From NCBI GenBank assembly GCA_963715505.1, contig OY970242.1, positions 2,683,788 through 2,747,787 on the forward strand: a stretch of DNA of 64,000 nucleotides, read 5' to 3'. Of the stretch, positions 11,846 through 53,444 are shown one piece after another. Source of the stretch: an uncultured Microthrixaceae bacterium. GTDB lineage: Bacteria; Actinomycetota; Acidimicrobiia; Acidimicrobiales; VFJN01. Positions within the stretch are counted from its first letter, which is position 1, and the number at the start of each line of letters is the position of its first letter. The position numbers and the translations under genes are program-made. The notes below the pieces were generated by a model. It searched no databases, had not been told where the DNA came from, and worked only from the letters and a program-made list of their open reading frames with translations.

Positions 11846-11934
11846 GTTCCTGCGGCACCTCGTCGTTCCTACGACACACCTCGTCGTTCCTGCGGCAGCT
11901 GATCAAGGTCTTGCTGAGCTTCTGCCGCAGGAAC
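11846..11934 (+). repeat. three direct GTTCC-headed repeats ending in a GGTCTTG-loop hairpin (dispersed hairpin family, copy 1); may double as the glnII terminator
   Basis: GTTCCTGCGGCACCTCGTC / GTTCCTACGACACACCTCGTC / GTTCCTGCGGCAGCTGATCAA-GGTCTTG-CTGAGCTTCTGCCGCAGGAAC. GTTCC occurs at 11846, 11865 and 11886; the loop is 11907-11913. The hairpin is followed by GACGGGTTTTGG. Confidence 0.7.
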
Positions 11935-11988
11935 GACGGGTTTTGGCAGCGACTACCGTGCCTGGTCGGTCGAACCGAGGAGGCAACG

Positions 11989-13413
11989 ATGGAGGAGCGC
12001 ACCGCCAACGAGGTGCTCGAGCTGGTCGGGTCCGAGGCGGTCGAGTTCGTCGACCTCCGGTTCTGCGACCTGCCCGGCGTCATGCAGCACGTGACCATCC
12101 CGGCCGGCGTGCTCGACGAGGGCCAGTTCGAGGATGGCCACGCGTTCGACGGGTCCTCGGTCCGTGGGTTCCAGGAGATCCAGGAATCCGACATGGTGCT
12201 CATCGCCGACCCCAACACCGCCTACCTGGACCCCTTCCGCGCCCGCAAGACGCTGGTGATGCACTGCTACGTCGCCGATCCGGTCACGGGTGAGCGCTAC
12301 AGCCGCGACCCGCGCTACGTCGCGCAGAAGGCACAGGAGCACCTGTTCTCCACGGGCCTCGCCGACACCGCCTACTTCGGACCCGAGCCCGAGTTCTTCA
12401 TCTTCGACGACGTGCGGTTCGAGACGAAGCCGAACGGCAGCTTCTACCAGGTCGACTCCGTCGAGGGTCAGTGGAACACCGGCAAGGACGAGGGCCCGAA
12501 CCTCGGCTACAAGCCCCGCACCAAGGAGGGCTACTTCCCGGCGCCGCCGATGGACCACTACATGGACCTGCGCTCGGAGATGTCGGCCACCCTGCACCAG
12601 GTCGGCATCGAGACCGAGCTGCACCACCACGAGGTCGCCTCGGGCGGACAGGGCGAGATCGGCATGCGCTTCGACACGCTGCTGGCGATGGCCGACAAGC
12701 TGATGACGTTCAAGTACGTGCTGAAGAACGTCGCCTGGGCGGCCGGCAAGAGCCTCACGTTCATGCCGAAGCCGATCTTCGAGGACAACGGCTCGGGCAT
12801 GCACACGCACCAGTCGCTCTGGAAGGGCGGGGAGCCGCTCTTCTACGACGAGGCCGGCTATGCGGGCCTGTCGGACCTCGCCCGCTGGTACATCGGCGGG
12901 CTGCTGCACCACGCCGACGCCGTCATCGCCTTCACGAACCCGACGACCAACAGCTTCAAGCGGCTGGTGCCGGGCTACGAGGCGCCGGTGAACCTCGTCT
13001 ACAGCCAGCGCAACCGCTCTGCCGCCTGCCGGATCCCCCTCGGTCAGCGCAGCCCGAAGGCCAAGCGCGTCGAGTTCCGCTGCCCCGACAACACCTCGAA
13101 CCCGTACCTTGCCTTCTCCGCGATGATGCTCGCCGGCCTCGACGGCATCACGAACCGCATCGAGCCGCCGACGCCGATGGACAAGGACCTCTACGACCTG
13201 CCGCCCGAGGAGCTGGCGCAGGTCCCCCAGGTCCCCGGCTCGCTCGAGGCCGCGCTCGACGCGCTCGAGGCCGACAACGACTTCCTCCGGGTCGGCGGCG
13301 TCTTCACCGACGACCTGCTCGACACCTGGATCGCCTACAAGCGCTCCCATGAGGTCGACGCCCTCCGCCTGCGCCCGCACCCCTACGAGTTCACCCTCTA
13401 CTACGACATCTGA
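11989..13413 (+). CDS. glnA: type I glutamine synthetase (GSI-beta, adenylylatable)
   Basis: ATG 11989 is preceded by GAGGAGG. Sequence: [30 protein letters not shown]...; [45 protein letters not shown]. The adenylylation-site context is [12 protein letters not shown]. Confidence 0.95.
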
Positions 13414-13440
13414 GCGGGAAGGGCGCTGGGCGTGCCCTGG

Positions 13441-15126
13441 TCAGAAGGGGGCGAGCATGCAGTAGTAGACGGGCGAGAGGAGCGCGTCGAGCGGTGAGCG
13501 GGCGCGCATCGCTTGGCTGGCGGCGGGGCGCGGTGGTGCGCCGTCGGGCCACGCCGCTTCCCTCGGCGGGAGACCGAGGGCGGCACGGATCTGGGGTTGG
13601 AGCTCGAGCACCCAGAAGCCACCCGTGCGCGTCGTCAGCCAGATGTGGCCGGTGTCGGGCAGGTAGCGCACGTGCCCCCACGCCTGGTCGAAGCCTCGCT
13701 GGCCCTCGAGGTTCAGCACGGGGTCGAGCGGCGACCCGGAGAGGTCGAGGAGCGGGACGTCGAACAGGCCGGGGCTGAAGTAGGCGACCTCGACCGGGGC
13801 ATCGGCATCCCGGATGTCGAACACCCGCAGGCCGGCGTTCCACATCGACACCATGGCGAAGGTGGTGTCGTTCGGATCGTCGACGTCGTGGTAGTGCGCT
13901 GAGGCGTTGACGCCCGACGCCAGCTGGTCGAGGCAGTGGGCCGGGTCGTTGATCGCAAGGGTCAGGCGGCCCCGGTCGACCGGCGCGGTCTCGTCGCTGA
14001 TGTCGGTGAGGAAGGCCTGGGCCACGCCGCCGACGGGCGTGAGGTCCGGCAAGCAGCCGTTGGCGGTGAGGTTGACGACCGACTCGTCCGAACGGAGCAG
14101 GAACGGGCGGCCTTCGATGGTCGCGGTGCGGATCGAGTGGCCCGGTCCCGCGAAGCGCGACACGAGCCGGGCCGGGCGGGTGGGCCAGCCTCCGATGTCG
14201 ATGACCATGGACGCCTCGTCGCCGGGGAACTGGCCACCGATGTACAGCCGCGTGCCGTCGGCCGACGGCCAGGCCTCGTGCGCGAACTCGAGCTGCTGCA
14301 CCCCCTGAGCCCGCAGCTGGTTCTCCAGGCTGCCGAGGTACGCCGGCCGGGTGGGGTCCGTGAGGTCGAAGGCCTGGAGCGGGAGCGTGCCCCACACGGT
14401 GCGCGCATCGGGCGAGAGCGTCAGGTTGTGCACGCTCTGCGGGAAGTCGATGGACGACAGGAGCCGGGGGTGCTCGCAGTCGGAGACGTCGTAGACGTCG
14501 ACCGGCGCCGACTGGACGGGGGGCTGGAAGTTGAAGAACAGGCCGTAGCGCCCGACGACGAGGATGGAGCGGTCGGGCGCGTCGACGGCGTGGAGGGTCT
14601 CGAGCGCGTCCTTGGATCCCTGCGTCGTGAGGGTGCCGACCTGCCGTGGCGCCGAGGGCTCGGACACGTCCACCACCGCGACGCCCTCGCCCGCCACGTA
14701 GGCGCAATGACCGGCCCAGGCCATGTTGGCGTTGGCGCCCCTCCCGCCGAGCGAGCTGTAGCCGACGACCGAGAGGCCGCAGCTGTAGCCCTCGCGAGCT
14801 CGACCGGAGCGCTGGTCCGCGAGCGGGATGTCGCCCTGGATCCCCGTCTCGGGCCGGTCGTTCGCTCCGCAGTGGGGCTGGGGATCGGCCGGCGCCGCAC
14901 CGGGGGGCTCGACGGTCACCTGGAGCGCTTGGTCCCCGCCGGCCGACGCAGCAGCGCTGGGTCCCGCGCCGCCCGGCCCGACCGACGCGGAGGCGGCGAT
15001 CGAGCCGTCGCGCGCGCTCGGCTCGCGATCGGGCGCGGCGGTCCCGGAGGTGCGTGCCCCAACCGCGCCGAGCTGGAGCGCGAGCGACATCACGACTGCT
15101 CCAGCCAACGCCCGCGTCCTGCGCAT
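13441..15126 (-). CDS. secreted protein, probably a beta-propeller (LVIVD-repeat-like)
   Basis: Signal peptide MRRTRALAGAVVMSLALQLGAVGA. Repeated V-D-V/S-D motifs (VAVVDVSEPSAP, VDVYDVSDCEHP, AFDLTDPTRP, VFDIRDADAP). 561 aa with consistent GC3. Confidence 0.65.
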   Translation of the reverse strand: MRRTRALAGAVVMSLALQLGAVGARTSGTAAPDREPSARDGSIAASASVGPGGAGPSAAASAGGDQALQVTVEPPGAAPADPQPHCGANDRPETGIQGDIPLADQRSGRAREGYSCGLSVVGYSSLGGRGANANMAWAGHCAYVAGEGVAVVDVSEPSAPRQVGTLTTQGSKDALETLHAVDAPDRSILVVGRYGLFFNFQPPVQSAPVDVYDVSDCEHPRLLSSIDFPQSVHNLTLSPDARTVWGTLPLQAFDLTDPTRPAYLGSLENQLRAQGVQQLEFAHEAWPSADGTRLYIGGQFPGDEASMVIDIGGWPTRPARLVSRFAGPGHSIRTATIEGRPFLLRSDESVVNLTANGCLPDLTPVGGVAQAFLTDISDETAPVDRGRLTLAINDPAHCLDQLASGVNASAHYHDVDDPNDTTFAMVSMWNAGLRVFDIRDADAPVEVAYFSPGLFDVPLLDLSGSPLDPVLNLEGQRGFDQAWGHVRYLPDTGHIWLTTRTGGFWVLELQPQIRAALGLPPREAAWPDGAPPRPAASQAMRARSPLDALLSPVYYCMLAPF

Positions 15127-15279
15127 CCGATGGTTCTTCGACGCCCGCTGGGCGACTCCTGTCTGCAGGCGCCACGCCCGGGCGCGATCTTCCCAAGCAG
15201 GAGCGGGCGTCCTAGTCTCGACTCAGCGTTGAGCAGGAGCGCCGGCGGGATCGGACGTGGGGGAAGGATCTGCGGGCAG

Positions 15280-15642
15280 GTGAACGGTGACTACGGGGTG
15301 GACGTCTCGAACGAGGGACGTGGCGACGTGCGGCTGTCGGTGTGGGGCATCGTGGACGGGGCGACGGCGCCCGAGATGCTCGACGCCATCCTCTGCGCCG
15401 CGTTCACCTACGACCAGGGTCAGGTCATCATCGATCTCGCCGGCGTGTCGCACCTGGACCCGACGGGGCTCGCTGCCCTGCGCGCGGCGCACCGCAACCT
15501 CGTCGCCGACGGCACGCGCCTCTCCGTGCGCAACCCGAACGCCGAGGTGACCAAGGTGCTCCACGTCAGCGGCCTCGACACCTATCTCAACATCGAGTCC
15601 GACCTCGAGCCCGGTCCCCCGGTGCTGCGGCGCGTCGGCTAG
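15280..15642 (+). CDS. STAS-domain anti-sigma-factor antagonist
   Basis: Tail of ORF 13936..15642; GTG 15280 follows GGGGGAAGGA. Sequence: ...VIIDLAGVSHLDPTGLAALRAAHRNLVADGTRLSVRNPNAEVTKVLHVSGLDTYLNI. The stop TAG (15640-15642) lies inside the IS target duplication. Confidence 0.7.
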   Translation: MNGDYGVDVSNEGRGDVRLSVWGIVDGATAPEMLDAILCAAFTYDQGQVIIDLAGVSHLDPTGLAALRAAHRNLVADGTRLSVRNPNAEVTKVLHVSGLDTYLNIESDLEPGPPVLRRVG

Positions 15643-15643
15643 C

Positions 15644-16704
15644 TGTAGGTCCCATGGACGTTGCTGACAGGTAGGCGGGTCCACCGATGAGTTGAGCCTC
15701 CGAGGAAACGTGTGGCTGTCGAGGTCACAACGCTTCCAAGGAGGCTCGATTGCACCGTAACGCCAGGCTCACCGAGTGGGGCCGACAAGAGCTCGTTCGT
15801 CGAATGGACGCCGGGACTCCGGCCGCGACGGTCGCCCGGCAGATGAACGTGTCGCGAGACACGGTCTACAAGTGGTGGCGGCGCGCCCATGCCGAACCTG
15901 ACGGCGCGTGGTGGCGGGACCGGTCCAGCCGCCCCCACCGCTCGCCGGCGAAGACCCGCCGGAAGCTCGAACGGAAGATCCTGAGCCTTCGTCGCAACAA
16001 GAAGCTTGGCCCCGGCCGCATCGCGGGGCGTCTGGAGATCGCCCCATCGACAGTGCACGCGGTCCTCGTCCGCAACGAGGTCTCTCGGTTGGCGTGGATG
16101 GACCGCCCGACCGGTCGGGTGATCCGCCGCTACGAGCACGACCACCCCGGCGACCTGGTCCACGTCGACATCAAGAAGCTCGGTCAGATCCCACCGGGCG
16201 GCGGCTGGCGCGCCAACGGTCGCACGACCGAGAGCCGCTCGGCGGCCCGCCGACGCAAGGTCGGCTACTGCTACGTGCACTCAGCCATCGATGACCACTC
16301 CCGACTCGCCTACAGCGAGATCCACGACGACGAACAAGCCGTCACGGCCGCCGGGTTCTGGCGGCGAGCCCGCACCTTCTTCGAAGCCCACGACGTCACC
16401 GTGCGTGCCGTGCTCACCGACAACGGCGGCTGCTACCGCTCTCGCGAGTGGCTGAAGGAAGTCGTCGCCGGAGGCGCCTCCGCCCGCTACACCCGGCCCT
16501 ACCGGCCCCAGACCAATGGCAAGGTCGAACGCTTCAACCGCACCCTCCTCGAGGAATGGGCCTACACCCGCACCTACCGCTCAGAAGCCGAACGACGTCG
16601 ACGACTCGACACCTGGCTCCACCTCTACAACCATCACCGCTGCCACACCGCCCTCGGCGGCCAACCACCCATCACCCGCGTCGACAACGTGTCTGGGACC
16701 TACA
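15644..16704 (+). mobile_element. IS481-family insertion sequence, 1061 bp, intact, with a 6-bp GCTAGC target-site duplication
   Basis: The ends are TGTAGGTCCCA...TGGGACCTACA (imperfect IRs, 20/25 identical). It is flanked by GCTAGC at 15638-15643 and 16705-16710. It contains one DDE transposase ORF. Confidence 0.9.
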
Positions 16705-16709
16705 GCTAG
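15750..16709 (+). CDS. IS481-family DDE transposase
   Basis: MHRNARLTEWGRQELVRRM... (HTH), ...LVHVDIKKLG...HSAIDDHSRLAY...TDNGGCY...RPQTNGKVERFNRTLLEEW. TTG start. The stop TAG (16707-16709) is supplied by the duplicated CTAG target. Confidence 0.9.
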   Translation: MHRNARLTEWGRQELVRRMDAGTPAATVARQMNVSRDTVYKWWRRAHAEPDGAWWRDRSSRPHRSPAKTRRKLERKILSLRRNKKLGPGRIAGRLEIAPSTVHAVLVRNEVSRLAWMDRPTGRVIRRYEHDHPGDLVHVDIKKLGQIPPGGGWRANGRTTESRSAARRRKVGYCYVHSAIDDHSRLAYSEIHDDEQAVTAAGFWRRARTFFEAHDVTVRAVLTDNGGCYRSREWLKEVVAGGASARYTRPYRPQTNGKVERFNRTLLEEWAYTRTYRSEAERRRRLDTWLHLYNHHRCHTALGGQPPITRVDNVSGTYS

Positions 16710-18049
16710 CGACCGGCGGCGCCGACGGAGTCGTCGGTCGCAGCGAGGTGCCAGCGGCCGCGCCCCGCGGCCTTGGCGGCGTAGAGCGCCGCGTCGGACC
16801 GCTCGAGGAGCGAGTCGATCGACGCCCCGGCCGTGCACATGGCGATCCCCACGCTGGCGCCGATCTCGAGGCTCGCGTCGTCCAACACGACCGGCCGTTG
16901 CAGCGCCTCGATGATGCGCTGCGCCACGCCGACGGCTTCGAGCTCGTCGACGAGGCCGACGCACTCCACCACGAACTCGTCGCCACCCATCCGCGTGATG
17001 CGGTCGCCGGGACGCACCGCCCCCCGGAGGCGGTCCGCGACGGTGACGAGGACGAGGTCGCCGGCGCTGTGCCCGTGGCGGTCGTTGACCCGCTTGAAGT
17101 CGTCGAGGTCCACGTAGAGCAGCGCGGCGTCGGGGTGGCTGCCTCCACCGGAGCGGTCGAAGAAGCGCTCTCGGTTGGCGAGCCCCGTCAGGGAGTCGTG
17201 GAAGGCGGCGTGGGACAGGCGCTCCTGCATCGCCGTGCGCTCGAAGGCCAGGCCCGCCGCCGTCACGATGTGGCCGAGCTGCTCGGCCTGGTTGGGGCTC
17301 ATGACTCCGGCCGTGCGCCGCGTCACGACCACGCCCGCCCGGCCGGCGCCCGTGAGGGCCCGGGGCAGGGGGTGCAGCCACCAAGCGGACACGCCGGCGG
17401 CGGCCAGCAGCCGGTGGTGGTCGTCGGTCTCGGCGGCGACGTCGGCGACCTGCGTGACCGCACCGCCGTCGAGCGCGCGCCACCACGGACCGGGGGTCTT
17501 CAAGGCCACCTGCACGGGCTCGGAGATGTGCTCCCCGCCCACCAGCCGCCGGCCGACGTCGTCCTGCACGAGCCAGCATCCCGCGGCCGAGAAGGGGCTG
17601 GCCCGGAGCGACTCCGCGAGCACCTCGAGCGTGGCGTCGACCGCGCCGCCGGCCGCGACCGACGACAGCGCGGCGGAGATGTGGGGCGCCGTCGACTCCG
17701 GGGTGATCACCACCACGATGGCCTCGACGTCCGGATCGGCGAGGAGGTTCTGCGCCCAGAGGTCACCGTGGCGGACGCTGCCGTCGACGTGGCGATAGCG
17801 GATCTTCACGGGTCCCATGGCGACGTCGGGGTTCTCCGTCCCGAACGCCAGCAGGCCGGAACTCCGCGCCGCTTCCGCCGTGCTGAACTCGACGATGTTG
17901 CGCCCGACCACGTCGGACGCCGCCACGCCCACGAGCCGCAGCGCAGCCGCGTTGGCGTCGAGGATCGTGCCGTCGGGGCTCAAGTGCAGCACCCCGACCG
18001 GAAGGCGGTCCAGGACTGCGCCCGGCTCGCCCGTCGCCTCCGAGCTCAT
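16706..18049 (-). CDS. PAS-sensor diguanylate cyclase (PAS + GAF-like + GGDEF)
   Basis: ATG 18049 follows GGAGGA. PAS region: LDRLPVGVLHLSPDGTILDANAAALRLVG. GGDEF domain: DSLTGLANRERF...LLYVDLDDFKRVNDRHGHSAGD...RMGGDEFVV...ALYAAKAAGRG. The minus-strand stop TAG (16708-16706) lies in the other TSD copy. Confidence 0.85.
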   Translation of the reverse strand: MSSEATGEPGAVLDRLPVGVLHLSPDGTILDANAAALRLVGVAASDVVGRNIVEFSTAEAARSSGLLAFGTENPDVAMGPVKIRYRHVDGSVRHGDLWAQNLLADPDVEAIVVVITPESTAPHISAALSSVAAGGAVDATLEVLAESLRASPFSAAGCWLVQDDVGRRLVGGEHISEPVQVALKTPGPWWRALDGGAVTQVADVAAETDDHHRLLAAAGVSAWWLHPLPRALTGAGRAGVVVTRRTAGVMSPNQAEQLGHIVTAAGLAFERTAMQERLSHAAFHDSLTGLANRERFFDRSGGGSHPDAALLYVDLDDFKRVNDRHGHSAGDLVLVTVADRLRGAVRPGDRITRMGGDEFVVECVGLVDELEAVGVAQRIIEALQRPVVLDDASLEIGASVGIAMCTAGASIDSLLERSDAALYAAKAAGRGRWHLAATDDSVGAAGR

Positions 18050-18108
18050 GGGTCCTCCGTCGCCGCGGCGGCGCAGCCGCTCCTGCCGGGAGAGAGGATA
18101 CGACGCGC

Positions 18109-18585: not shown

Positions 18586-18615
18586 GGATGCCTCCGATAT
18601 CGTCTATGGACAGCC

Positions 18616-18643: not shown

Positions 18644-18681
18644 GCAACCTGTGGACCGGACCACGAGCGAGGAGCGCCACC

Positions 18682-19011: not shown

Positions 19012-19036
19012 CGCCGCATCGGCGCTGCGCGGCGCG

Positions 19037-25046: not shown

Positions 25047-26774
25047 TTGGGAGTCGTGGCCAGCATCCGCCTCGCGCTCTGCCAGATCGACCCGGTCGTC
25101 GGCGACCTCGACGGCAACGTCGAGCGCATCCTGGCTGCCTACGACGAGGCCGAGGCGGCGGGCTGCGACCTCGCGGTGTTCCCCGAGCTGGCGATCCCCG
25201 GCTACCCGCCCGAGGACCTGGTGCTGCGGCCCGGGTTCATCGCGGACAACCAGGCTGCCCTCCAGAAGGTGGCAGCGCGCACCGGGCGCTGCGCGGCCGT
25301 CGTCGGGTTCGTCGACGCCGACCGCGACCTGCGCAACGCCGCGGCGCTGTGCGCGTCGGGCGAGGTCGTCGGCAGCTACCACAAGCGCCTGCTGCCCAAC
25401 TACGGCGTCTTCGACGAGCAGCGGTACTTCGCGCCGGGCATCGAGCCCTACGCGCTGTACGAGGTGGCGGGCGTGAAGGTGGCGATGGCGATCTGCGAGG
25501 ACCTGTGGAGCCCCGAGGGCGCCATCGCCGACCAGTCCGCGGGAGGCGCCGAGCTCGTCGTGATCCCCAACGCCTCCCCCTACTTCCAGGGCCGTCACGG
25601 CGAGCGGGAGCGGATGGTGGCCACCCGCGCCGAGGACGCGCACTGCCACATCGCCTACGTGAACCAGGTGGGCGGCCAGGACGAGCTGATCTTCGACGGC
25701 ACCTCGTTCGTGGTCGACGAGCGGGGCGATCTCGTGGCGCGCTCGCCGCAGCTGCGCGAGCACGTCCAGATCGTCGACCTCGACATCCGGCCCGTCTTCC
25801 GCAGCCGCCTGCTCGACCCGCGCGGGCGCGACACGGGCCCAGCGCTGCCCGTGATCCCCGTGTCCGGCCCGGTCGCCGACCATCCCGGACCCGCGCACCC
25901 GCCGGCCATCGCGCCGCTGCTCGACCCCGTCGCCGAGACCTACGACGCGCTCGTGCTCGCCACGCGCGACTACGTCGCCAAGAACGGCTTCACCGACGTC
26001 GTGCTCGGGCTGTCGGGTGGCGTCGACTCCTCGCTCGTCGCGGTGATCGCCGCCGACGCCGTGGGCCCCGAGCACGTGCACGCCGTGTCGATGCCGAGTC
26101 GGTACTCGTCCGAGCACTCCCGCACCGACGCGGAGCGGCTCTGCGAGGCCGCCGGCATCGAGCTGCGGACCATCGCCATCGAGCCGGGCTACACCGCCTT
26201 CGTCGACATGCTGGCACCGAGCTTCGAGGGCCGAGCCGAGGACCTCACCGAGGAGAACCTGCAGCCGCGCATCAGGGGCACGCTGCTCATGGCGCTCTCC
26301 AACAAGTTCCCTGGCTGGCTGGTCCTCACGACCGGCAACAAGAGCGAGCTCGCCGTCGGCTACTCCACGCTCTACGGCGACACCGCCGGCGGCTTCGCGG
26401 TCATCAAGGACATCCCCAAGCTGCTCGTGTACGAGCTGTGCCGCCTGCACAACGAGCGGGCCGGACGCGCCGTCGTGCCGGAGTCGGTGCTCACGAAGCC
26501 GCCCTCAGCCGAGCTCCGGCCCGACCAGCGCGACGACCAGTCCCTCCCCCCCTACGAGGTGCTCGATCCGCTCCTCGAGGGCTACGTCGAGCGCGACCTG
26601 ACGCGCGACGAGCTCGTCGCCGCCGGCTTCGATCGCGCGCTCGTCGAGCGGGTCAGCCGGCTCGTCGACGCCGCCGAGTTCAAGCGGCGGCAGATGCCGC
26701 CGGGGCCGCGCGTGACCCCGAAGGCGTTCGGCAAGGATCGCCGGATGCCGATCACCAACGGCTACCGCGGATGA
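25047..26774 (+). CDS. nadE: glutamine-dependent NAD+ synthetase (nitrilase domain + NAD synthase domain)
   Basis: IRLALCQIDPVVGDLDGN...FPELAIPGYPPEDL...ICEDLW (CN hydrolase) followed by LGLSGGVDSSLVA (the SGGxDS PP-loop). The start could be GTG 25056. Confidence 0.9.
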   Translation: MGVVASIRLALCQIDPVVGDLDGNVERILAAYDEAEAAGCDLAVFPELAIPGYPPEDLVLRPGFIADNQAALQKVAARTGRCAAVVGFVDADRDLRNAAALCASGEVVGSYHKRLLPNYGVFDEQRYFAPGIEPYALYEVAGVKVAMAICEDLWSPEGAIADQSAGGAELVVIPNASPYFQGRHGERERMVATRAEDAHCHIAYVNQVGGQDELIFDGTSFVVDERGDLVARSPQLREHVQIVDLDIRPVFRSRLLDPRGRDTGPALPVIPVSGPVADHPGPAHPPAIAPLLDPVAETYDALVLATRDYVAKNGFTDVVLGLSGGVDSSLVAVIAADAVGPEHVHAVSMPSRYSSEHSRTDAERLCEAAGIELRTIAIEPGYTAFVDMLAPSFEGRAEDLTEENLQPRIRGTLLMALSNKFPGWLVLTTGNKSELAVGYSTLYGDTAGGFAVIKDIPKLLVYELCRLHNERAGRAVVPESVLTKPPSAELRPDQRDDQSLPPYEVLDPLLEGYVERDLTRDELVAAGFDRALVERVSRLVDAAEFKRRQMPPGPRVTPKAFGKDRRMPITNGYRG

Positions 26775-27409
26775 GCGGCGTCTCGGCGGTGCTCTTCGAC
26801 TTCGCGGGCGTGCTGACGTCGTCGCCGTGGGCGGCGATGACCGCGGCGGGCGGAGGATCGCTCGAGCTGATCGTCGGCTCCTACGACGAGGATGGCGACC
26901 ACCCCTGGCACCAGGTCGAGCGCGGCGAGATGGCGATCGCCGACTGGGCGCTCGCCGTCACCGAGCTCGGCCGCGCGCAGGGCATCGAGGTCGACTTCAC
27001 ACCCATGCAGACCATGCTCGGCGAGATGACGGTCAACCAGCAGGTGCTCGACCGCATCCGCTCGCTGCGCGCCGAGGGCTACCGCGTCGGGCTCGTCACC
27101 AACAACGTCAAGGAGGGTTCGGCGACGTGGCGAGCGCTCGTCCCCGTCGACGAGCTCTTCGAGGTCGTCGTCGACAGCTGCGAGGTGGGCATGCGCAAGC
27201 CGAACCCGGCGATCTTCCACCATGCGCTGGAGCTGCTCGGCGGCGTCGCCCCGCACGAGGCGGTGTTCCTCGACGACAGCCCCGGCAACGTGGTCGGCGC
27301 CCAGCGCGCCGGCTTGCACGCCATCCTCGTCGACGACCCGGATGTCGCCCTCGCCGAGCTCGACGCGCTCCTGCTCCGCGAGCCCCCACCCTCGAACCTG
27401 CGGCACTGA
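26771..27409 (+). CDS. HAD-superfamily hydrolase (subfamily IA-like)
   Basis: Its ATG overlaps the nadE stop (ATGA). Motifs: VLFDFAGVLT (motif I DxxG variant), VTNN, GMRKPNPAIF, FLDDSPGNV. Its last 16 nt lie inside hairpin repeat copy 2. Confidence 0.8.
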   Translation: MSGVSAVLFDFAGVLTSSPWAAMTAAGGGSLELIVGSYDEDGDHPWHQVERGEMAIADWALAVTELGRAQGIEVDFTPMQTMLGEMTVNQQVLDRIRSLRAEGYRVGLVTNNVKEGSATWRALVPVDELFEVVVDSCEVGMRKPNPAIFHHALELLGGVAPHEAVFLDDSPGNVVGAQRAGLHAILVDDPDVALAELDALLLREPPPSNLRH

Positions 27410-27448
27410 GACGAGGTCTTGTCGTCTGAGTGCCGCAAGTTCAGGGGG
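27394..27448. repeat. GGTCTTG-loop hairpin element, copy 2 (55 nt)
   Basis: GAACCTGCGGCACTGAGACGA-GGTCTTG-TCGTCTGAGTGCCGCAAGTTC + AGGGGG. The stem is about 21 bp with one G-U pair and one mismatch. Confidence 0.8.
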
Positions 27449-27464
27449 TCGTCACCCCACGACC

Positions 27465-27519
27465 GAACCTGCGGCACTGAGACGAGGTCTTGTCGTCTGA
27501 GTGCCGCAAGTTCAGGGGG
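27465..27519. repeat. GGTCTTG-loop hairpin element, copy 3 (55 nt, identical to copy 2, 71-nt period)
   Basis: An exact 55-nt duplicate of 27394-27448, separated from it by a mini-palindrome (GGTCGTCACCCCACGACC). The pair fills the convergent gap between the HAD gene and the ABC exporter. Confidence 0.8.
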
Positions 27520-27529
27520 TGCGGGGTCT

Positions 27530-29443
27530 TCAGGTGGCGTGGGACGCCCAGGTGGCGACCATGGCGGCGTAGCGGCCACCGCTCGCCACGAGCTCGTCGT
27601 GGGTCCCCAGCTCGACGACCCGGCCGTCGTGGATCACCGCGATGCGGTCGGCACGCATCGCCGTGGCCAGCCGGTGCGCGATGAGGATGGCGGTGCGACC
27701 TTCGAGCAGCGTGTCGAGCGCCTCCTCGATCTTGGCCTCCGAGCGGAGGTCGAGGTTGGAGGTGGCCTCGTCGAGCACGAGGATCCGCGGCCGGGCGAGG
27801 AAGGCGCGCGCCAGCGCCAGCAGCTGGCGCTCACCTGACGACAGCGACACGCCACGCTCGTGCACGGGGGTGTCGAGGCCCTCGGGGAGCCGGTCGAGCA
27901 GATCGCCCAGGCCGACGAGTCGGCACGCCTCGACGACCTCGGCGTCCTCGGCCTCTGGCCGGGCGAAGGACACGTTGGTGCGTATCGATCCGCCGAAGAG
28001 GAACGGCTCCTGGGGCACGGTGCCGACCTGGCGGCGCACCGACGCGAGGGTCACCCCGCGCAGGTCGACGCCGTCGAGCCGCACCGTTCCCTGGGTGGGG
28101 TCGTAGAGCCGGTTGACGAGCTTGGCGATGGTCGACTTGCCGGCGCCGGTCTCGCCGACGAAGGCGAACGTCTCGCCCGGGGCGATGGTGAGGTCGACGT
28201 CGCGCAGCACGGGACGACCCGGCTCGTACGCGAACGTCACGGACTCGAGCCGCACCTCGCCGTCGAGCTCGGGCAGCTCGGCTGCCCCGGGCTGCTCCAG
28301 CACCGAGGGCTGCTCCGCCAGCAGGTCGCGCAGCTTGCGGACCGACGCCTGCCCCTGCTGGTAGGTGTTGTAGAGCTGCACCAGCTGCTGGATCGGCGCG
28401 AAGAAGGCGGTCAGGTAGAGGACGAACGCCACCAGGGTGCCGAGCTCCATCGAGCCGTCGAGCACCCACCGCCCGCCCACGACGAGGATGACGACCTGAC
28501 CGCCGAGCCCGACGGCCTCGGTGATGCCGCCGTAGGCGGCACCGACCGTGGCGGTGGCGTCGTTGGCGCGCTGGTAGGCGTGCACGATCGTGCGGTGCTC
28601 GGCGGTGTTCCGGCGCTGGCGGTTGTGACCCGTGACGATGCGCACACCGGAGAGGCTCTCCTGCAGGTGGGCGAGCACGTCGGCGATCCGGTCGCGGACG
28701 GCGTCGAACGTGGAGTCCGACGCCACCCGGTACCAGAGCGTTGCGGCCACCATCGGAGGCAGCACGACGAGCAGGGTCACGGCCGCGAGCCCCGGGTGGA
28801 GGAAGAACAGCACGCCCGTGACGAACACCATCGTCAGGCCCTGCACGAAGAGCTGGACCAGGCCCTCCTGGAGCAGCTGCGTGAGGTTGTCGAGGTCGCT
28901 CGTCATGCGCGTCATCAGGCGTCCCGCCTTCTCCCGCGAGAAGAAGTCGACGGACAGCCGTTGGAAGTGGGCGAAGACCTTGAGGCGCAGGTCGTAGAGC
29001 AACCGCTCCCCCACCCGCCCGGTCCAGGCGATGCGGAGCCGGCTGGCGACGGCGCCGACCACGACGCTCAGGAGGTAGGCGACGGCGACGGCGACCACGA
29101 CGCCGCGCTCGCCGGCGCGGATGCCGTCGTCGATGGCGATCTGCGTCAGCAGCGGCCCCGCCTGGAGTGTGACGGTCTCGAGGACGACCAGCACGATGGC
29201 CCCGACCAGCGCAGCGCGGTGCGGGCGCAGCAGGTGCCGGAGCGAGAACCGTCGGCGATCGGTCTGCACCTGGTCGTAGGCGACCGGCTGCCCGTCGTGG
29301 TCGGGCTCGCCGCGGAGCAGCCGGTCGACGCGCGACTGCATCTCCGGCGGCACGCCCGCGAAGGGCAGCCGAGCGCCACCGGCACCACCGGGCCCACCGA
29401 AGGGCGCGCCACCACCACCGAAGCCGCCACCACCCCAGGCCAC
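27530..29443 (-). CDS. ABC exporter, fused permease-ATPase subunit (second gene of a heterodimer pair)
   Basis: GTG 29443 is preferred, giving a 16-nt gap after the upstream stop, over the track start at 29482. Gly-rich N-terminus (VAWGGGGFGGGGAPFGGPGG). Six TM helices, Walker A GETGAGKST, signature LSSGERQ, Walker B ILVLDEATS. Confidence 0.85.
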   Translation of the reverse strand: MAWGGGGFGGGGAPFGGPGGAGGARLPFAGVPPEMQSRVDRLLRGEPDHDGQPVAYDQVQTDRRRFSLRHLLRPHRAALVGAIVLVVLETVTLQAGPLLTQIAIDDGIRAGERGVVVAVAVAYLLSVVVGAVASRLRIAWTGRVGERLLYDLRLKVFAHFQRLSVDFFSREKAGRLMTRMTSDLDNLTQLLQEGLVQLFVQGLTMVFVTGVLFFLHPGLAAVTLLVVLPPMVAATLWYRVASDSTFDAVRDRIADVLAHLQESLSGVRIVTGHNRQRRNTAEHRTIVHAYQRANDATATVGAAYGGITEAVGLGGQVVILVVGGRWVLDGSMELGTLVAFVLYLTAFFAPIQQLVQLYNTYQQGQASVRKLRDLLAEQPSVLEQPGAAELPELDGEVRLESVTFAYEPGRPVLRDVDLTIAPGETFAFVGETGAGKSTIAKLVNRLYDPTQGTVRLDGVDLRGVTLASVRRQVGTVPQEPFLFGGSIRTNVSFARPEAEDAEVVEACRLVGLGDLLDRLPEGLDTPVHERGVSLSSGERQLLALARAFLARPRILVLDEATSNLDLRSEAKIEEALDTLLEGRTAILIAHRLATAMRADRIAVIHDGRVVELGTHDELVASGGRYAAMVATWASHAT

Positions 29444-35200: not shown

Positions 35201-35203
35201 GGC

Positions 35204-45528: not shown

Positions 45529-45550
45529 CGCGCCGGGCCGGCCCGGTCCG

Positions 45551-47890: not shown

Positions 47891-47998
47891 GGGGCACGAC
47901 GAGCGTACGCCTCCCGGGCGCCGCATCACAGTGCTGTAGTTCCATCGATGTCGTGCGACGGAGCGCTGGCGCGCGGCGATAGGTTCCTGGCCGTGGAC

Positions 47999-48344
47999 AT
48001 GACGGTCGAGGTGGAGCTGGTGGGCGATTGGAGCGTCATCCGCGTCGCCGGGGAGATCGACGTCGCCACCGCGCCACGCCTGCCGCGAGCAGATCGTCGC
48101 CCTGGTGACCAACGGCCAGCGCCGGCTCGTGCTCGACCTCGAGTCCGTCGAGTTCATGGACTCCACGGGCCTGGGCGTCGTCGTGGGCGCGCTCAAGCGG
48201 ACCCGCTCGCACGGCGGCGATCTGCGCTTGGTCTCGACGCGGCCGGCGCTGCGCCGACTCTTCGAGCTCACCTCCCTCGACCGCGCGCTTCCGTTGGCGG
48301 ACAGCGTCGCCGACGTGGTCTCGGGCGGGACGGCCGAGGGCTGA
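47999..48344 (+). pseudogene. STAS-domain anti-sigma-factor antagonist with an apparent +1 frameshift at about 48083
   Basis: The N-terminus ([28 protein letters not shown]) is in the frame of ORF 45590..48526. The remainder ([39 protein letters not shown]...) is in the frame of ORF 48105..48344. The junction reads CGC CTG C CGC GAG. Confidence 0.65.
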
Positions 48345-48347
48345 GCC

Positions 48348-48779
48348 GTGACCCGCGTGGTGGAGCTCGAGATCCCGCCGCGCAGCGATCACCTGGCCCT
48401 GGTGCGACTCGTCGTCACCAGCGCGGCCAGCCTCGGCGGCGGGTTCGCGGATCGCCGCGTCGACGACCTGCGCCTGGCCGTCTCGGAGGCGTGCGCCAAC
48501 GCCGTCGACGCTGCGCTGGGGGCTGATGGCGGTGGCGTGGTGACGGTTCGCATCGAGGTCGACGAGGCGGCGGTGGCGGTCACGGTCACCGATCACGCCG
48601 GTGGCTTCGAGCCTGCCGAGGTCGAGGCGATCCCGGGCGCCACCGAGCCCGGCCGGCTGCGCCACGAGCACGGGCTGGGCATCCCGCTGATGCGCTCGCT
48701 GGTCGACGAGGTGACCTTCACGCGCACCGCCGACGGCACAGCCGTGCGCCTCACGGTGCGCGAGGACAGCGCCCGCTGA
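48348..48779 (+). CDS. anti-sigma-factor serine kinase (RsbW/SpoIIAB-like HATPase)
   Basis: Starts 4 nt after the STAS stop. Sequence: LRLAVSEACANAV (N-box), VTDHAGGF, GLGIPLMRSLVDEV (G-boxes). Confidence 0.8.
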   Translation: MTRVVELEIPPRSDHLALVRLVVTSAASLGGGFADRRVDDLRLAVSEACANAVDAALGADGGGVVTVRIEVDEAAVAVTVTDHAGGFEPAEVEAIPGATEPGRLRHEHGLGIPLMRSLVDEVTFTRTADGTAVRLTVREDSAR

Positions 48780-48792
48780 GCGCCCGCCCGGC

Positions 48793-48825
48793 GTCGCAGG
48801 AATTTCTTCCTCCGACGGGTTTGGG
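48793..48825 (+). terminator. possible intrinsic terminator of the STAS/RsbW operon
   Basis: GTCGCAGGAA-TTTC-TTCCTCCGAC hairpin (one 2-nt internal mismatch) followed by GGGTTTGGG. Confidence 0.35.
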
Positions 48826-48887
48826 CTGCGATCGAGTGGGGTACACCGTTCACTACACCCCCGTGCAGCCATGCGTTGACCAGGGGC

Positions 48888-48916
48888 TTGTCATCTAATC
48901 GAAACCGTTGTAACGT
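48888..48916 (+). promoter_or_regulatory. sigma-70-type promoter candidate (TTGTCA-17 nt-TAACGT)
   Basis: -35 TTGTCA (48888-48893), a 17-nt spacer, and -10 TAACGT (48911-48916, fits TANNNT). It lies in a locally AT-rich patch with no downstream ORF. Confidence 0.35.
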
Positions 48917-48922
48917 GATCGC

Positions 48923-49043
48923 AATCTTGCTGGAGGGGCACGCCGAAGGCGCCCAAGCCAGCAGCTGGATCTCGGGGCACCGGTCCCGCCGTCGGTCTGT
49001 CCGCCCGCCCCGACGGCGTAGGGCCGGTGCCTCGGGCGTTTTC
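48923..49043 (+). ncRNA. candidate small RNA (~120 nt) bounded by the promoter above and a strong intrinsic terminator
   Basis: Hairpin 1: GCTGGAGGGGCACGCCGAAGGCGCCCAAGCCAGC. The terminal compound hairpin spans 48974-49031: GGGGCACCGGTCCC / GCCGTCGG - C-rich 14-nt loop - CCGACGGC / GGGCCGGTGCC. It is followed by TCGGGCGTTTTCG. No credible ORF; sits in a 308-bp convergent gap. Confidence 0.3.
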
Positions 49044-49087
49044 GCCGCCATCGCCGGCGACCTGCTGGCCCAGCAAGCGCGAGCGCC

Positions 49088-49696
49088 CTACGCGCCGACC
49101 TCCCGGCGGCCCTCCAGCGCCCGTCCGAGGGTCAGCTCGTCGGCGTACTCGAGGTCGCCTCCGACGGGGAGGCCGCTGGCGATGCGCGTGACGCGCACGT
49201 CGAGGTCCTTGAGCAGCCGCCCCAGGTACATCGCGGTGGCCTCTCCCTCGAGGTTGGGGTTCGTGCAGAGGATGACCTCCACGACGCCTTCGGCGTCGAT
49301 GCGGGTCAGCAGCTCGCGGATCCGCAGCTGCTCGGGGCCGATGCCCTCGATGGGGCTGATGGCGCCCTGCAGCACGTGGTAGCGGCCGTGGAACTCCTGG
49401 GTCTTCTCCACGGCCACGATGTCGCGCGGCTCCTCGACGACGCAGAGGATCGTGGGATCGCGCCGAGCGTCGTCGCAGAGCGCGCAGGCATCGCCCTCGG
49501 CGATGTTGAAGCAGCGCTGGCAGAAGCGCACGCGGTCCTTGGCCACCACGATGGCGTTGGCGAGGCGCAGGGCGTCGGGCTTGTCCAGCTTCAGGAGGTG
49601 GAACGCGATGCGCTGCGCGGACTTGGGGCCGATCCCCGGCAGACGGCCCAGCTCATCGATCAGCTCCTGCACCGACGCTGCGTAGACGCTCGGCAT
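49088..49696 (-). CDS. recR: recombination protein RecR
   Basis: [24 protein letters not shown] (HhH), Zn finger [16 protein letters not shown], Toprim [22 protein letters not shown]. Confidence 0.95.
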
Positions 49697-50067
49697 CAGC
49701 CACCTCCGAGCAGGTCGCCGAGGGGCCCCATCGCCTCGCGCTGGACGTCCTGCAGCCGGGCGTTCACGTCGTGCAGGGCGGCGAGCACGAGGTCCTCCAG
49801 CATCCCGACGTCGTCGGGGTCGACCGCCGCGGGGTCGATCGTCACGCCGAGCACCTGGCCCGTGCCCGTGGCGCGGATGCGAACCACGCCGCCGCCCGCG
49901 ACGCCCTCCACCTCGCGCTCGGCGGCCTGCGCCTGGGCAGCCATCAGCTCCTGGGCCTGTGCCAGCAGGCCGCCGAGCCCCTCACCGCCGAGCGCGTCGA
50001 GGCCGGGCAGGGCAGGCAGCGACGACCCGCTGTCGGGGTGGTCTGGCTGGTCGGGCGCGTCGCTCAC
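49696..50067 (-). CDS. ybaB: YbaB/EbfC-family nucleoid-associated protein
   Basis: GTG 50067 is in frame with ORF 49696..50496. Sequence: ...[68 protein letters not shown]. Its stop overlaps the recR ATG. Confidence 0.85.
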
Positions 50068-50089
50068 GTCGGAAGCGTACGCGCCAGCC

Positions 50090-51871
50090 TCAGGCTCCAG
50101 GCTCCTCGACGAGCTCGGCACCCGGGAAGGCCTCCGACAGCCGGTCGACGCCGCTGGTCGCGTCCGGCGCGTCCTCGAGCGCGTGGACGTCGATGGCCTC
50201 GTCGTCCTCGGCCGCCGGCGCAGGGGCAGCGGGACCGGCGCCTGCCGGGGGCGGCCCGCCCGCCTCGACGTCGGTGACGAGGCGCAGCGGGACGGGTCGC
50301 CCGAAGTGCGCGGCCAGGGCGGCCTCGACCTCGGGACGCTTCTTCTCGCAGTGATCGCGCGTCGGCGCGTTTGCGAGCGCGAACACCGCCGACCGCGGCT
50401 CGGACTCGGCGAAGCGCCCCGTGCCGAACACCGCCTTGGTGCCAGGCTTGAGGGCCCCGCGCACGGCCCCGGCCCAGGCCTGCTCGAGCTCCTCACGGGT
50501 GGGAACGCCTCCGGTGCCGGCGTCGGGGTCCGGGGCGGGCCGGGGCTCGTCGCGCGGTGGCGCGCTCGCCGGAGGTGCGGCCGCCTTCTTCACCGGCGCA
50601 CGGACCGGGGCCACCTTCGCCGCCGCTGCCGGCGCCGCTGTGGCAGCGGGTGACGCCTTGGCCTTGGCGAGCTCCTCACGGGCCGCTGCCGCCGGCCCAG
50701 CGCCCGGCGCGGGGGCGACCGCGCCCGCGCCCTCGGGCCGCGCCGGCGCGGTCGGGGCGCCCGAGGCGAGGGCGCGCTCGATGCGCTCGAGGCGATCGAA
50801 GACCGCGTCGAGCGAGCGGTCGGCCGCCGGGCGGCACAGCCGCACCAGCGCCACCTCCAGCACGATCCGCGGATCTGGCTTCTTCGGGAGCTCGACGAGC
50901 GCGTCGCCCAGCACCTCCAGCGCCCGGGTGAGACCGGCCGCGCCGAGCTGCCCGCCGAGCGCGGCCGCTCGCTGGAGATCGCTCGGGGGCAGGTGCCGGT
51001 CGGGTGCCTGCATCTCCGCCAGGAAGGCGTCGCGCAGCCGACCGATGAGCACCTCACCGAGCGCTCGCGGATCGCGCCCGGCTGCGGTTGCCTCCGCCAC
51101 CGCGACCAGCGCCGCGCCGGCGTCGTGCACGGCGAGCGCGTCGAGGATCGCCTCGACCGGCTGCGCGTCCGGCAGCACCCCACCCATGGCGGCGACCTGG
51201 TCGAGCGCCGACAGCGTGTCGCGCGCCGATCCGCCACCCCGGCGCACGACGTGCTCGATGGCCTCCTCGCCGAGCTCGAGCCCGGCGTCGGCGATGACGT
51301 GGCGGACGTGGTCGGCGAGCTCCTCGGCGGGGAGCAGGTGGAACTCGAAGTGCTGGGTGCGGCTGCGGATGGTCGGCAGCACCTTCTGCGGGTCGGTGGT
51401 GGCGAGGATGAACACGACGTGGGACGGGGGCTCCTCCAGCGACTTCAGCAGGGCGTTGGACGCGCCGGTGCTGAGCATGTGGACCTCGTCGAGGATCACC
51501 ACCTTGCGGTTGCCCGACGTGCCGAGGGGGATGCGCTCGATCAGCTCGCGGATGTTGGCCACGCCGTTGTTGGAGGCGGCATCGAGCTCGAGCAGCCAGT
51601 CGACGATGCGGCCCTCATCGACCGCCACGCAGTTGGCGCACTCGCAGCACGGCTCGCCGTCGACGGGTGCCTCGCAGTTGAGGACCTTGGCGAGGATGCG
51701 GGCGGTCGAGGTCTTGCCGGTGCCCCGCGGCCCGCTGAAGAGGTAGGCGTGCCCGACGCGGTCCTCGAGCACGGCGGTGCGCAGCGCGCGCATGACGTGG
51801 TCCTGCCCGCGCTGCTCGCCGAAGCGCTTGGAGCGGTAGCGCCGGTACAGCGCCTGGTACCCATCGGCCAT
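50090..51871 (-). CDS. dnaX: DNA polymerase III subunits gamma/tau
   Basis: ATG 51871. Sequence: MADGYQALYRRYRSKRFGEQRGQDHVMRAL...YLFSGPRGTGKTSTARILAK.LNC (Walker A, Zn module CCECANC), ILDEVHML, and a Pro/Ala-rich tau linker. Confidence 0.9.
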   Translation of the reverse strand: MADGYQALYRRYRSKRFGEQRGQDHVMRALRTAVLEDRVGHAYLFSGPRGTGKTSTARILAKVLNCEAPVDGEPCCECANCVAVDEGRIVDWLLELDAASNNGVANIRELIERIPLGTSGNRKVVILDEVHMLSTGASNALLKSLEEPPSHVVFILATTDPQKVLPTIRSRTQHFEFHLLPAEELADHVRHVIADAGLELGEEAIEHVVRRGGGSARDTLSALDQVAAMGGVLPDAQPVEAILDALAVHDAGAALVAVAEATAAGRDPRALGEVLIGRLRDAFLAEMQAPDRHLPPSDLQRAAALGGQLGAAGLTRALEVLGDALVELPKKPDPRIVLEVALVRLCRPAADRSLDAVFDRLERIERALASGAPTAPARPEGAGAVAPAPGAGPAAAAREELAKAKASPAATAAPAAAAKVAPVRAPVKKAAAPPASAPPRDEPRPAPDPDAGTGGVPTREELEQAWAGAVRGALKPGTKAVFGTGRFAESEPRSAVFALANAPTRDHCEKKRPEVEAALAAHFGRPVPLRLVTDVEAGGPPPAGAGPAAPAPAAEDDEAIDVHALEDAPDATSGVDRLSEAFPGAELVEEPGA

Positions 51872-51920
51872 CGGACGGACCCTACCGGTCCGGCCGGGCA
51901 CAGCGACGGGCCCGCTCCCC

Positions 51921-52032
51921 CATGTGACGGTCAGGCGATCTGCGGCACACCGCAGGCTCCGCTGAGAGCTGCTGCCTCCCGGCCCTGACTCGGTTCACGG
52001 ACTGCGATTGCACAGGACCCGACCGCCACATG
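51921..52032 (-). ncRNA. ffs: signal recognition particle RNA (small/4.5S type); ends +/-10 nt
   Basis: The minus strand reads ...GUGAACCGAGUCAGGGCCGGGAGGCAGCAGCUCUCAGCGG..., matching the domain IV core GUCAGGUCCGGAAGGAAGCAGC of E. coli 4.5S. The closing helix pairs CAUGUGGCGGUC with GACCGUCACAUG. It is in the classical position upstream of dnaX. Confidence 0.75.
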
Positions 52033-52096
52033 CGAGAGCGGGCCGACCGACACGATAGCCTCATCGGTCCTGGCTGCCACCCCCGGGTGGACCCCT

Positions 52097-52184
52097 GGAG
52101 GGGTGCGAGAGCGGCCGAATCGGCACGCTTGGAAAGCGTGTGAGGGGCAACCCTCCGTGGGTTCGAATCCCACCCCCTCCGCCA
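52097..52184 (+). tRNA. tRNA-Ser (anticodon GGA), CCA encoded
   Basis: Acceptor GGAGGGG/CCCCTCC. Anticodon arm CACGC-TTGGAAA-GCGTG. Long variable arm. T-arm GTGGGTTCGAATCCCAC. Confidence 0.9.
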
Positions 52185-52198
52185 CGCTCGTCGCTGCG

Positions 52199-53285
52199 TC
52201 AGCGGCGCGAGCAGAGCAGCACGCCGAGCGCGCAGCGCCGCTCCGGCGCCTCCTCCGAAGGGGGTGGCGATGGCGGCTCGGAGGGCTGCGTGGGCTCCGA
52301 CGAGGGTGGCGAGCTGCGCCCGTCGAACCGCACCGTGCCCGCCTGGTCGAGCTGCACCGGCCGCCGATCCGGGCAGCGACGCGGCCAGCTGCGAGTCGGC
52401 GTAGGCGAAGGCCTGCTGCACGGTGGGACCGGCGCGGCCTTGCAGCCACCCCTCGCGGATCATGTGGTGCACGAGGTACGACGCGCCGTGGCTGCTGCTC
52501 TCGTAGGCGAGCTGGTTCGCGCCCGCCGCCCCCGTGAGGACCCGTCCGGGTGCGAGCGCCTCCGTGAAACCACCCGCGTAGCAGGTGGCGAGCAGCAGCC
52601 AGACCTTGTCGGCGACCGTCGGGGCGAGCAGGGCGGCAAGATCCTCGTCGGTGAGGAGCGCGCCGTCGGCGGTGATGATCGCCTCGGTGTCGTCGTCGAG
52701 CTTGCGGACGTGACCGGCGTAGGCCAAGACCATCGTCGACGCGGGTCCGGCACGGGCGACGAGCGCGCGGACGGACGCGACGAGCTGGCGGTGCGTGGCC
52801 TGACTGTCCCGCAGCACGACGCGGTTGCCCCGCGGCACGTCGAAGCCGGCGAGCGCCGCGTCGATGGCGTTGGCGTCGGCGACCGCGAACCGCAGGTCCG
52901 ACGCGCTGCCCGGGTAGTCGTCGATGCCGACGACGAGGGCGTACACCCCGTCGTCCGACGTGCCGACGCTCGCCGGAGCGAACGTGGTGGCCGGCGCCGC
53001 AGGCTCTGCCACCGGGCCGGAGAGCTCGACCGGCGGCACGATCGGCACCTCGTCGACGGGAGCGGCGGGCGGGGGCGCTGCCGCCACGGGAGGCGCAGCG
53101 ATGATGCGCGGCTCGGACGCTCCAGCGGTGCCCGGCGGTGACCGCCGCTCAGCAGGTGGCGCCCCGGGCGCGGCCTCCATGGCCGCTCGGTCGAGCCAGC
53201 GCCCGTCGGGCACCACCTGGATGGCGCCGGGGATGGCGGCGAGGGCAACCGCGACGACGGTCGCCTTCAGCCGACCCGATCGCAT
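52199..53285 (-). pseudogene. secreted caspase-like (peptidase C14) protein with an apparent +1 frameshift near 52366-52374
   Basis: ATG 53285 (MRSGRLKATVVAVALAAIPGA...). Caspase-type core: YALVVGIDDYPGS...LAYAGHV...LLLATCYAGGF. The track ORF (51882..53408) then reads antisense through tRNA-Ser and ffs. Shifting one base at CTG CC(C) GAT gives PDRRPVQLDQAGTVRFDGRSSPP...CALGVLLCSRR*, with its stop at 52201-52199, 15 nt from the tRNA. Confidence 0.6.
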
Positions 53286-53395
53286 CCCGCCCGCCCTCCG
53301 ACCATCCGCCCGGACGGCCCCAGCGCCGTCCGATCGAACCCCTCCATGCAAGGTTCGACACCGCTGCGCCCCTTCCTGCCAACCCCAAACCCCGC

Positions 53396-53444
53396 GTTTC
53401 GGCGGCACTTGCTACGGGTCTTGCTGGACTTCTGCCGCAGGAAC
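53396..53444. repeat. GGTCTTG-loop hairpin element, copy 4 (degenerate left arm)
   Basis: GTTTCGGCGGCACTTGCTACG-GGTCTTG-CTGGACTTCTGCCGCAGGAAC. The right half is near-identical to 11907-11934. Confidence 0.65.

Follow-up and report, generated by a model that had tools for sequence, protein, structure and literature searches.

The 64,000-nt stretch of DNA analysed here (hereafter the window) comes from the genome of an uncultured Microthrixaceae bacterium (GenBank assembly GCA_963715505.1, contig OY970242.1, positions 2,683,788 to 2,747,787 of the forward strand) and carries four copies of a dispersed hairpin repeat. Copy 1 (11876-11944, + strand; core 11886-11934, loop 11907-11913) is a hairpin of ~69 nt between glnII (10813-11826) and glnA (from about 11989), at a distance of 50 nt from the glnII stop and of 45 nt from the glnA start. 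A short T-tract, TTTT (11941-11944, + strand), stands directly after its stem, a feature that no other copy has. Copy 2 (27384-27452, + strand; core 27394-27442, loop 27415-27421), a near-perfect hairpin, and copy 3 (27455-27523, + strand), its direct tandem duplicate, occupy the convergent gap between a HAD hydrolase gene (26771-27409) and an ABC exporter gene (27530-29443, - strand). Copy 2 overlaps the last HAD codons, with the stop codon TGA (27407-27409) inside the hairpin, and the end of copy 3 lies 7 nt from the stop-codon end (27530) of the convergent exporter gene. The HAD protein ends in ...LLREPPPSNLRH as against ...LLAG in the related contig L165, an extension of 9-10 codons relative to L165, from which it follows that the hairpin element supplies the last HAD codons. 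Copy 4 (53386-53454, + strand; core 53396-53444, loop 53417-53423), the most degenerate, lies in the gap where a caspase-domain gene (- strand) and tadA (+ strand, 53475) diverge, 21 nt before the tadA start. The flanking genes were identified with Pfam, and the intergenic contexts proposed in the initial annotation of this DNA (glnII/glnA, the HAD/ABC exporter gap and upstream of tadA) held up. The best relatives of glnII are 86-91% identical, and those that are named are proteins of Acidimicrobiales metagenome-assembled genomes (MAGs).

The pattern GCGGCA-N(7-11)-GGTCTTG-N(7-11)-TGCCGC matched the window four times, always on the + strand (11892-11928, 27400-27436, 27471-27507 and 53402-53438), and gave no match in 100 dinucleotide-preserving shuffles of the window, so the four copies with a shared motif described earlier are confirmed. 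In 4/4 of them the loop GGTCTTG is flanked by 9 nt on each side (GCGGCA-N9-GGTCTTG-N9-TGCCGCA). A covariance model (R1), built from seven members and run on the window with filters off, recovered just these four, scoring copies 1, 2 and 4 at 78, 82 and 68 bits and also matching copy 3, while the next match reached 18 bits inside coding sequence. The copies are the strongest inverted repeats of the window, the G+C content of which is 73%. The tandem pair is exact over 57 nt (27393-27449 = 27464-27520) with the period of 71 nt reported earlier, and the complete 71-nt units of copies 2 and 3 are identical at 63 of 71 positions. The GTTCC-headed half-repeats seen before copy 1 are also real, with heads at 11846, 11865 and 11886, at intervals of 19 and 21 nt, upstream of glnA; the first two begin incomplete direct repeats of the 5' arm, GTTCCTGCGGCACCTCGTC and GTTCCTACGACACACCTCGTC (11846-11885, + strand), probably what is left of a neighbouring copy that decayed or was duplicated only in part. 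What did not survive was the idea of flanks common to all copies, as not all have CTGCGGCA/TGCCGCAG: copy 4 has CGGCGGCA and copies 2 and 3 have TGCCGCAA.

The unit is a hairpin of ~69-71 nt, longer than the 49-55 nt first delimited, with a C-rich 5' flank that pairs with a G-rich 3' flank. Its parts are, in order, the C-rich flank, GWWC-N-TGCGGCA, a variable 9-nt segment of which the last 3-4 nt pair, a 7-nt subfamily loop and a mirror arm. Folds of the window copies range from -34 to -43 kcal/mol, with z-scores of -4.4 to -7.9; as RNA, copy 1 folds at -41 kcal/mol (z -7.9), copy 2 at -43.2 kcal/mol and copy 4 at -34 kcal/mol on the + strand versus -23.8 kcal/mol on the - strand. It had been claimed that the inner stem varies between loci yet stays complementary, and this is true in part: the inner stem is well paired in copies 2 and 3, while copies 1 and 4 carry an internal loop there and the inner stem of copy 1, CAGCTGATCAA / CTGAGCTTCTG, is complementary at only 7 of 11 positions. 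In a subset of the hairpins (window 11876-11944, L079 6966-7105, L138 968-1036 and others) CCGC stands 5' and GCGG 3' just outside GWWC. Each arm of this subset could fold on itself into a tiny CCGC-GWWCNT-GCGG hairpin.

Beyond the window, a loop-anchored pattern with variable gaps matched at least 118 loci in the genome-contig collection, nearly all of them chance matches inside coding sequence. The genuine members among the matches listed come from two MAGs, one of the Microthrixaceae (L079, two copies) and one of the Iamiaceae (L036, a single copy), and the loop is identical in all seven members found in this way (four in the window, two in L079 and one in L036). We also scanned metagenome contigs, of soil type, with a self-complementary pattern that left the loop unconstrained, GWWCNTGCGGCA-N25-TGCCGCANGWWC, and obtained 39 matches at 38 loci, representing 36 distinct hairpins. 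Nine metagenome loci belong to a subfamily with the loop GGTCTKS (GGTCTTG, GGTCTTC, GGTCTGG or GGTCGTG), which has 18 distinct members when the window, L079 and L036 are included. Other subfamilies have the loops GATATTC (with a GGGC/GCCC apical stem), CAGGATC and CGTGGCG, and there are a few singletons. The scan thus gave several loop types, and the loop is therefore a marker of the subfamily and not an invariant of the family; the invariant 7-nt loop of the initial annotation describes the four window copies, L079 and L036 correctly, but it differs between subfamilies of the wider family.

Every family member that could be placed taxonomically belongs to the Acidimicrobiales, and a protein encoded next to a GATATTC hairpin shares 90% identity with a protein of an Acidimicrobiales MAG. 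Neither pattern had any match in 2.9 million viral contigs, hence there is no sign of a phage origin. At gathering thresholds the hairpins matched no Rfam family, and in E-value mode they matched only generic miRNA-precursor hairpins far below threshold. Literature searches on REP (repetitive extragenic palindrome) or hairpin families in Acidimicrobiia or Actinobacteria found no description of such a family, and a 2025 tool paper counts only generic palindromes in Acidimicrobium ferrooxidans. The hairpin was thus rightly left unnamed in the first description, and the family is apparently undescribed and lineage-specific to the Acidimicrobiales.

The pairing of the stem is kept by compensatory changes. 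The clamp TGCGGCA/TGCCGCA and GWWC are imposed on most members by the search patterns, and consequently their invariance is not evidence; the WW dinucleotides were left free (16 combinations) in the loop-free pattern and are complementary in 31 of the 36 distinct matches (p≈2e-14). Both GTTC...GAAC and GAAC...GTTC occur, also within the GGTCTKS subfamily, and the GTAC forms of L079 could be intermediates of a stepwise compensatory change. When the 18 GGTCTKS members were aligned (alignment A3) under the pairing scheme i:70-i, 75% of cells were paired, against 66% in shuffles and at most 46% with the partners slid, and the covariation score reached 0.317, where shuffles gave 0.18 and slid partners no more than 0.14. 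The covarying regions are the outer stem, where columns 12/58 and 13/57 have UA in 9 members versus AU in 7-8 (GTTC:GAAC versus GAAC:GTTC), the pair beside TGCGGCA, where columns 15/55 have CG in 8 versus UA in 5, and the three loop-closing pairs (28-30/40-42), all of these with clear double changes. Columns 23-27 are about half paired and form an internal loop. The compensatory changes proposed from the window copies are therefore substantiated on the larger set. We considered whether the GTTC/GAAC swap might reflect a flipping of REPs, as in REPINs (REP doublets that form hairpins), and rejected this, as the position of WW relative to TGCGGCA is constant.

Gene calls at the metagenome loci came from a codon-usage gene caller, spot-checked by Pfam. 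Of the 36 distinct metagenome hairpins 33 are intergenic, typically 10-100 nt from a stop codon; many lie between two convergent stops, 10-60 nt away, and a few in divergent gaps. Direct tandem pairs occur in 8 loci and across subfamilies, with a period of 71 nt in 5/8 (window, L079, L131, L151 and L155) and of 72, 60 or 91 nt otherwise; the pair in L079 directly follows atpC, and the pairs in the window, L121 and L126 are near-identical. An identical 49-nt core is present in three unrelated flanks (L125, L133 and L143). We saw no flanking direct repeats or target-site duplication around these identical-core copies or around the window copies, the flanks being mutually complementary or unrelated, never direct repeats. 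Consequently the earlier label of a REP- or MITE-like element (MITE stands for miniature inverted-repeat transposable element) is unsupported in its MITE half for want of a target-site duplication, and is retained in its REP half for a dispersed, intergenic and unnamed hairpin that is present in other Acidimicrobiales.

The hairpins also turn over at orthologous sites. No family copy is present in ~100 kb of DNA of close relatives. The orthologous glnII-glnA spacers of L160 (91% glnII identity), L163 (90%) and L161 (87%) each hold a strong hairpin of their own with another sequence; the GTTTTG tract and the sequence downstream of it are common to the window and L163, in which a different hairpin precedes them. 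At the second locus, a CLC-channel gene (Voltage_CLC + CBS) follows HAD in L164 (11776-14075) and in L165 (11716-16099, there before ABC exporters). The window (26771-29443) lacks this gene and has the tandem hairpin pair exactly at that junction, where the loss could have been a repeat-associated deletion. The convergent gap between CLC and ABC genes in L165 (14058-14170) holds another hairpin family, GTGCTGCTCAGTCAG-CCGCGTC-CTGACTGAGCAGCAC, as a tandem pair ~70 nt apart, so related genomes bear other hairpin families with a similar tandem register. In L151 (2305-3492) CGTGGCG-type hairpins stand on both sides of a DUF559/MTES_1575 restriction-endonuclease-like gene (2353-3321, - strand), with a tandem pair to one side of it and a lone hairpin to the other. 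We considered this bracketed gene as a transposase and rejected it, since it is DUF559/restriction endonuclease-like; metabolic or housekeeping genes make up the rest of the neighbours checked.

Taken together, we favour the reading, at a rough probability of 0.55, that the four copies are members of an Acidimicrobiales-specific family of REP/REPIN-like extragenic palindromes, with a proposed spread at the DNA level and a proposed role at gene 3' ends. Copies would spread or be homogenised as DNA: the 71-nt unit would duplicate in tandem, and identical cores would move to new flanks with no target-site duplication, presumably through a mobilising enzyme. The copies would accumulate where tolerated, mostly just past stop codons. 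Transcribed in either orientation, the long G+C-rich stem-loop would probably act as a 3'-end structure, either as a barrier to 3' exonucleases or as a factor-assisted or weak terminator, or both. The clearest candidate for such a role would be copy 1 with its TTTT after glnII.

Several observations weigh against this reading. A REP system has tens to hundreds of copies in one genome; within 64 kb of the source genome there are only 3 loci and 4 copies, and copies 1, 2 and 4 differ considerably among themselves, too much for recent descent from a single master. REPINs are mobilised by RAYT transposases (REP-associated tyrosine transposases; PMC3116915, PMC3337134, PMC3733652), whereas no RAYT, IS200-like or other transposase was found among the 28 window and locus proteins scanned with Pfam. 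The unit of ~70 nt fits the typical REPIN total of 70-90 nt but exceeds classical REPs of 20-40 bp, and the tandems are head-to-tail with a 71-nt period, while REP dimers are mostly head-to-head or tail-to-tail (PMC3733652). The unpaired GTAG/CGTC tag is absent in the 18 GGTCTKS members: the 4 nt 5' of GWWC are variable (CGTC, CCTC, GACC, CCGC, GCTC and TCGC, among others), and the 3' flank is their pairing partner. The foot of copy 1 does have CGTC, an apparent tag that we rejected as not general in the family. Copy 4, L036 and L151 lie in divergent (5') gaps. Concerning the 3'-end role, no copy passed a consensus scan for a hairpin followed by a T-run, the TTTT of copy 1 being too short for it, and Czyz et al. 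2014, as cited in PMC8355165, report that the RNA polymerase of mycobacteria requires a U-tract, which makes termination proper doubtful. We accordingly rejected a canonical Rho-independent terminator, as there is no T/U-rich tract and copy 1 alone has four T.

The most serious rival, to which we would give perhaps one chance in several, is that these are site-bound functional RNA hairpins, terminators or stability and processing elements formed in situ, in which the clamp and loop are selected for a trans-acting RNA-binding protein or RNase and mobility plays no part. The compensatory changes fit this well, as do the conserved islands of sequence with variable yet paired segments between them, the T-tract of copy 1, the presence of some hairpin at the orthologous site of every relative, and copy 4, which folds far better as + strand RNA and has 3 G.U pairs there. 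The orientation of the loop relative to transcription is not fixed, however: against validated genes, GGTCTKS copies are found in sense (copy 1 and L079) and in antisense (L138, flanked by a MerR gene and a nuclease gene). Nor is there an overall excess of G.U pairs over A.C mismatches (26 vs 21), and for the GATATTC subfamily the better fold is that of the antisense strand. Because the loop is also specific to subfamilies, its conservation seems to reflect common descent or recognition as DNA, and the earlier suggestion that it is a protein- or RNase-binding RNA loop was not upheld; any effect of the stem at the RNA level would be independent of orientation. The site-bound explanation is further weakened by the same core in unrelated flanks, by relatives that lack the family and have unrelated hairpins at the same sites, and by the copies in 5' or divergent gaps.

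A bolder version of mobility, which we hold as tentatively as the RNA explanation, is that the hairpins form a superfamily of ~71-nt mobile elements with a common clamp and interchangeable loops, each loop specifying a cognate enzyme acting on single-stranded DNA (ssDNA), in a REPIN/RAYT-like system that would be the first described in Actinomycetota. Such elements might insert head-to-tail at a fixed 71-nt register, remodel gene 3' ends, as in the extension of HAD, and mediate deletions, as of the missing CLC gene.

There is a slim chance that TGCGGCA-N25-TGCCGCA is a site in duplex DNA bound by a dimeric regulator or a nucleoid-associated protein. The half-sites are invariant and their 25-nt spacing is fixed in all members, copy 4 and L036 are found in promoter regions between divergent genes, and copy 1 is upstream of glnA beside the extra GTTCC direct repeats. 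The invariance of the half-sites is in part imposed by the search patterns, though, and the flanking and apical segments vary but stay complementary, which indicates selection for a hairpin; most copies, moreover, lie between convergent stops, where there is no promoter. Slimmer still is the chance that the hairpins are recombination or transposon-end sites folded as ssDNA, like attC or IS200/IS605 subterminal hairpins marking the boundaries of cassettes or elements: conserved boxes around a variable centre that keeps its structure, the absence of target-site duplication, the junction that lacks the CLC gene of L164 and L165, and the DUF559 nuclease-like gene flanked by copies in L151 would fit such an analogy, but the neighbours are core housekeeping genes (glnII/glnA, tadA and atpC), cassette arrays are absent and no integrase or transposase lies close by, inspection shows that the GWWC feet do not match the R/L box consensus of integron attC sites (RYYYAAC ... 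GTTRRRY), and 2.9 million viral contigs gave no match.

The window has other features of interest near the copies. A nitrogen cluster at 8605-13413 comprises an OmpR-type regulator, a third glutamine synthetase (9300-10637, - strand), glnII and glnA, and is found likewise in L157 and L161; the three GTTCC heads that precede glnA might represent a GlnR-type operator. Around copy 4 there are a signal recognition particle (SRP) RNA (51926-52024, - strand), tRNA-Ser(GGA) (52097-52184, + strand) and, directly after tadA, tRNA-Ser(CGA) (53988-54076, + strand). The - strand open reading frame that holds the caspase domain (51882-53408) overlaps both the SRP RNA and the first tRNA, which leaves its caspase-domain part as the only one likely to be real. 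Just upstream of a small gene on the - strand (54119-54532) there is an aptamer of the c-di-GMP-II riboswitch class (Rfam RF03169; 54559-54643, - strand; 44.1 bits against a gathering score of 40). Unrelated hairpins are present in other 3' gaps of the window.

If the favoured REP/REPIN-like reading is confirmed genome-wide, it would add a REP-like family to a poorly studied and largely uncultured order of actinobacteria. What makes the family worth attention is its modular anatomy, with a common stem clamp and subfamily loops, and the recurrent 71-nt tandem register. The hairpin family alone reveals no new mechanism, and as REP-like elements are already known in other bacteria we regard it as interesting rather than exotic. 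In annotation it would mark 3'-end structures and explain odd C-terminal extensions; the hairpins would also serve as markers for strain typing, and they would offer a handle on transcript ends in genomes of very high G+C content, where U-tract terminators are mostly lacking.

Among known systems, the untagged small palindromic families described in M. tuberculosis, D. radiodurans, Bordetella, Brucella and Cyanobacteria (PMC3733652) include REP-like families of non-enterobacterial phyla that are similar to ours by description only; we claim no sequence relationship, and Rfam gave no match. A second comparison is with the putative intrinsic terminators that consist of a hairpin alone ('I-shaped') or of tandem hairpins ('U-shaped'), as proposed in G+C-rich Actinobacteria (PMC8355165). 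The family shares with these a strong G+C-rich stem-loop past stop codons, usually without a U-tract, and the occurrence of tandems, and other 3' gaps in the window and in relatives hold unrelated hairpins in the same position. Unlike ordinary terminators, it is a repeated sequence family with a common clamp and loop, and some of its copies occupy 5' or divergent gaps; it is disputed, besides, whether actinobacterial RNA polymerase can terminate without a U-tract.

The closest comparison is with REPs and REPINs. Tagged REPs have been reported in >80 species of 8 phyla, with Actinomycetota absent from the main text of that survey (PMC3733652). A REPIN contains two recognisable REP palindromes, whereas our family is a single long hairpin with a 7-nt loop conserved at its tip; its conserved inverted arms surround a partly paired variable centre and are marginally palindromic, with a 4-bp CCGC/GCGG stem in the subset described above, where they bear a faint resemblance to a REP doublet. 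Published REPs lie between unidirectional and convergent open reading frames, downstream of coding regions, and form species-specific families with variable spacers that keep the hairpin (PMC3733652, PMC3337134), and REP families transpose without target duplication (PMC3733652, PMC3337134, PMC3116915). In common with REPs and REPINs, the hairpins described here are short dispersed extragenic palindromes found mostly downstream of genes, and they are lineage-specific, fall into several subfamilies and combine conserved arms with a variable centre that keeps its pairing.

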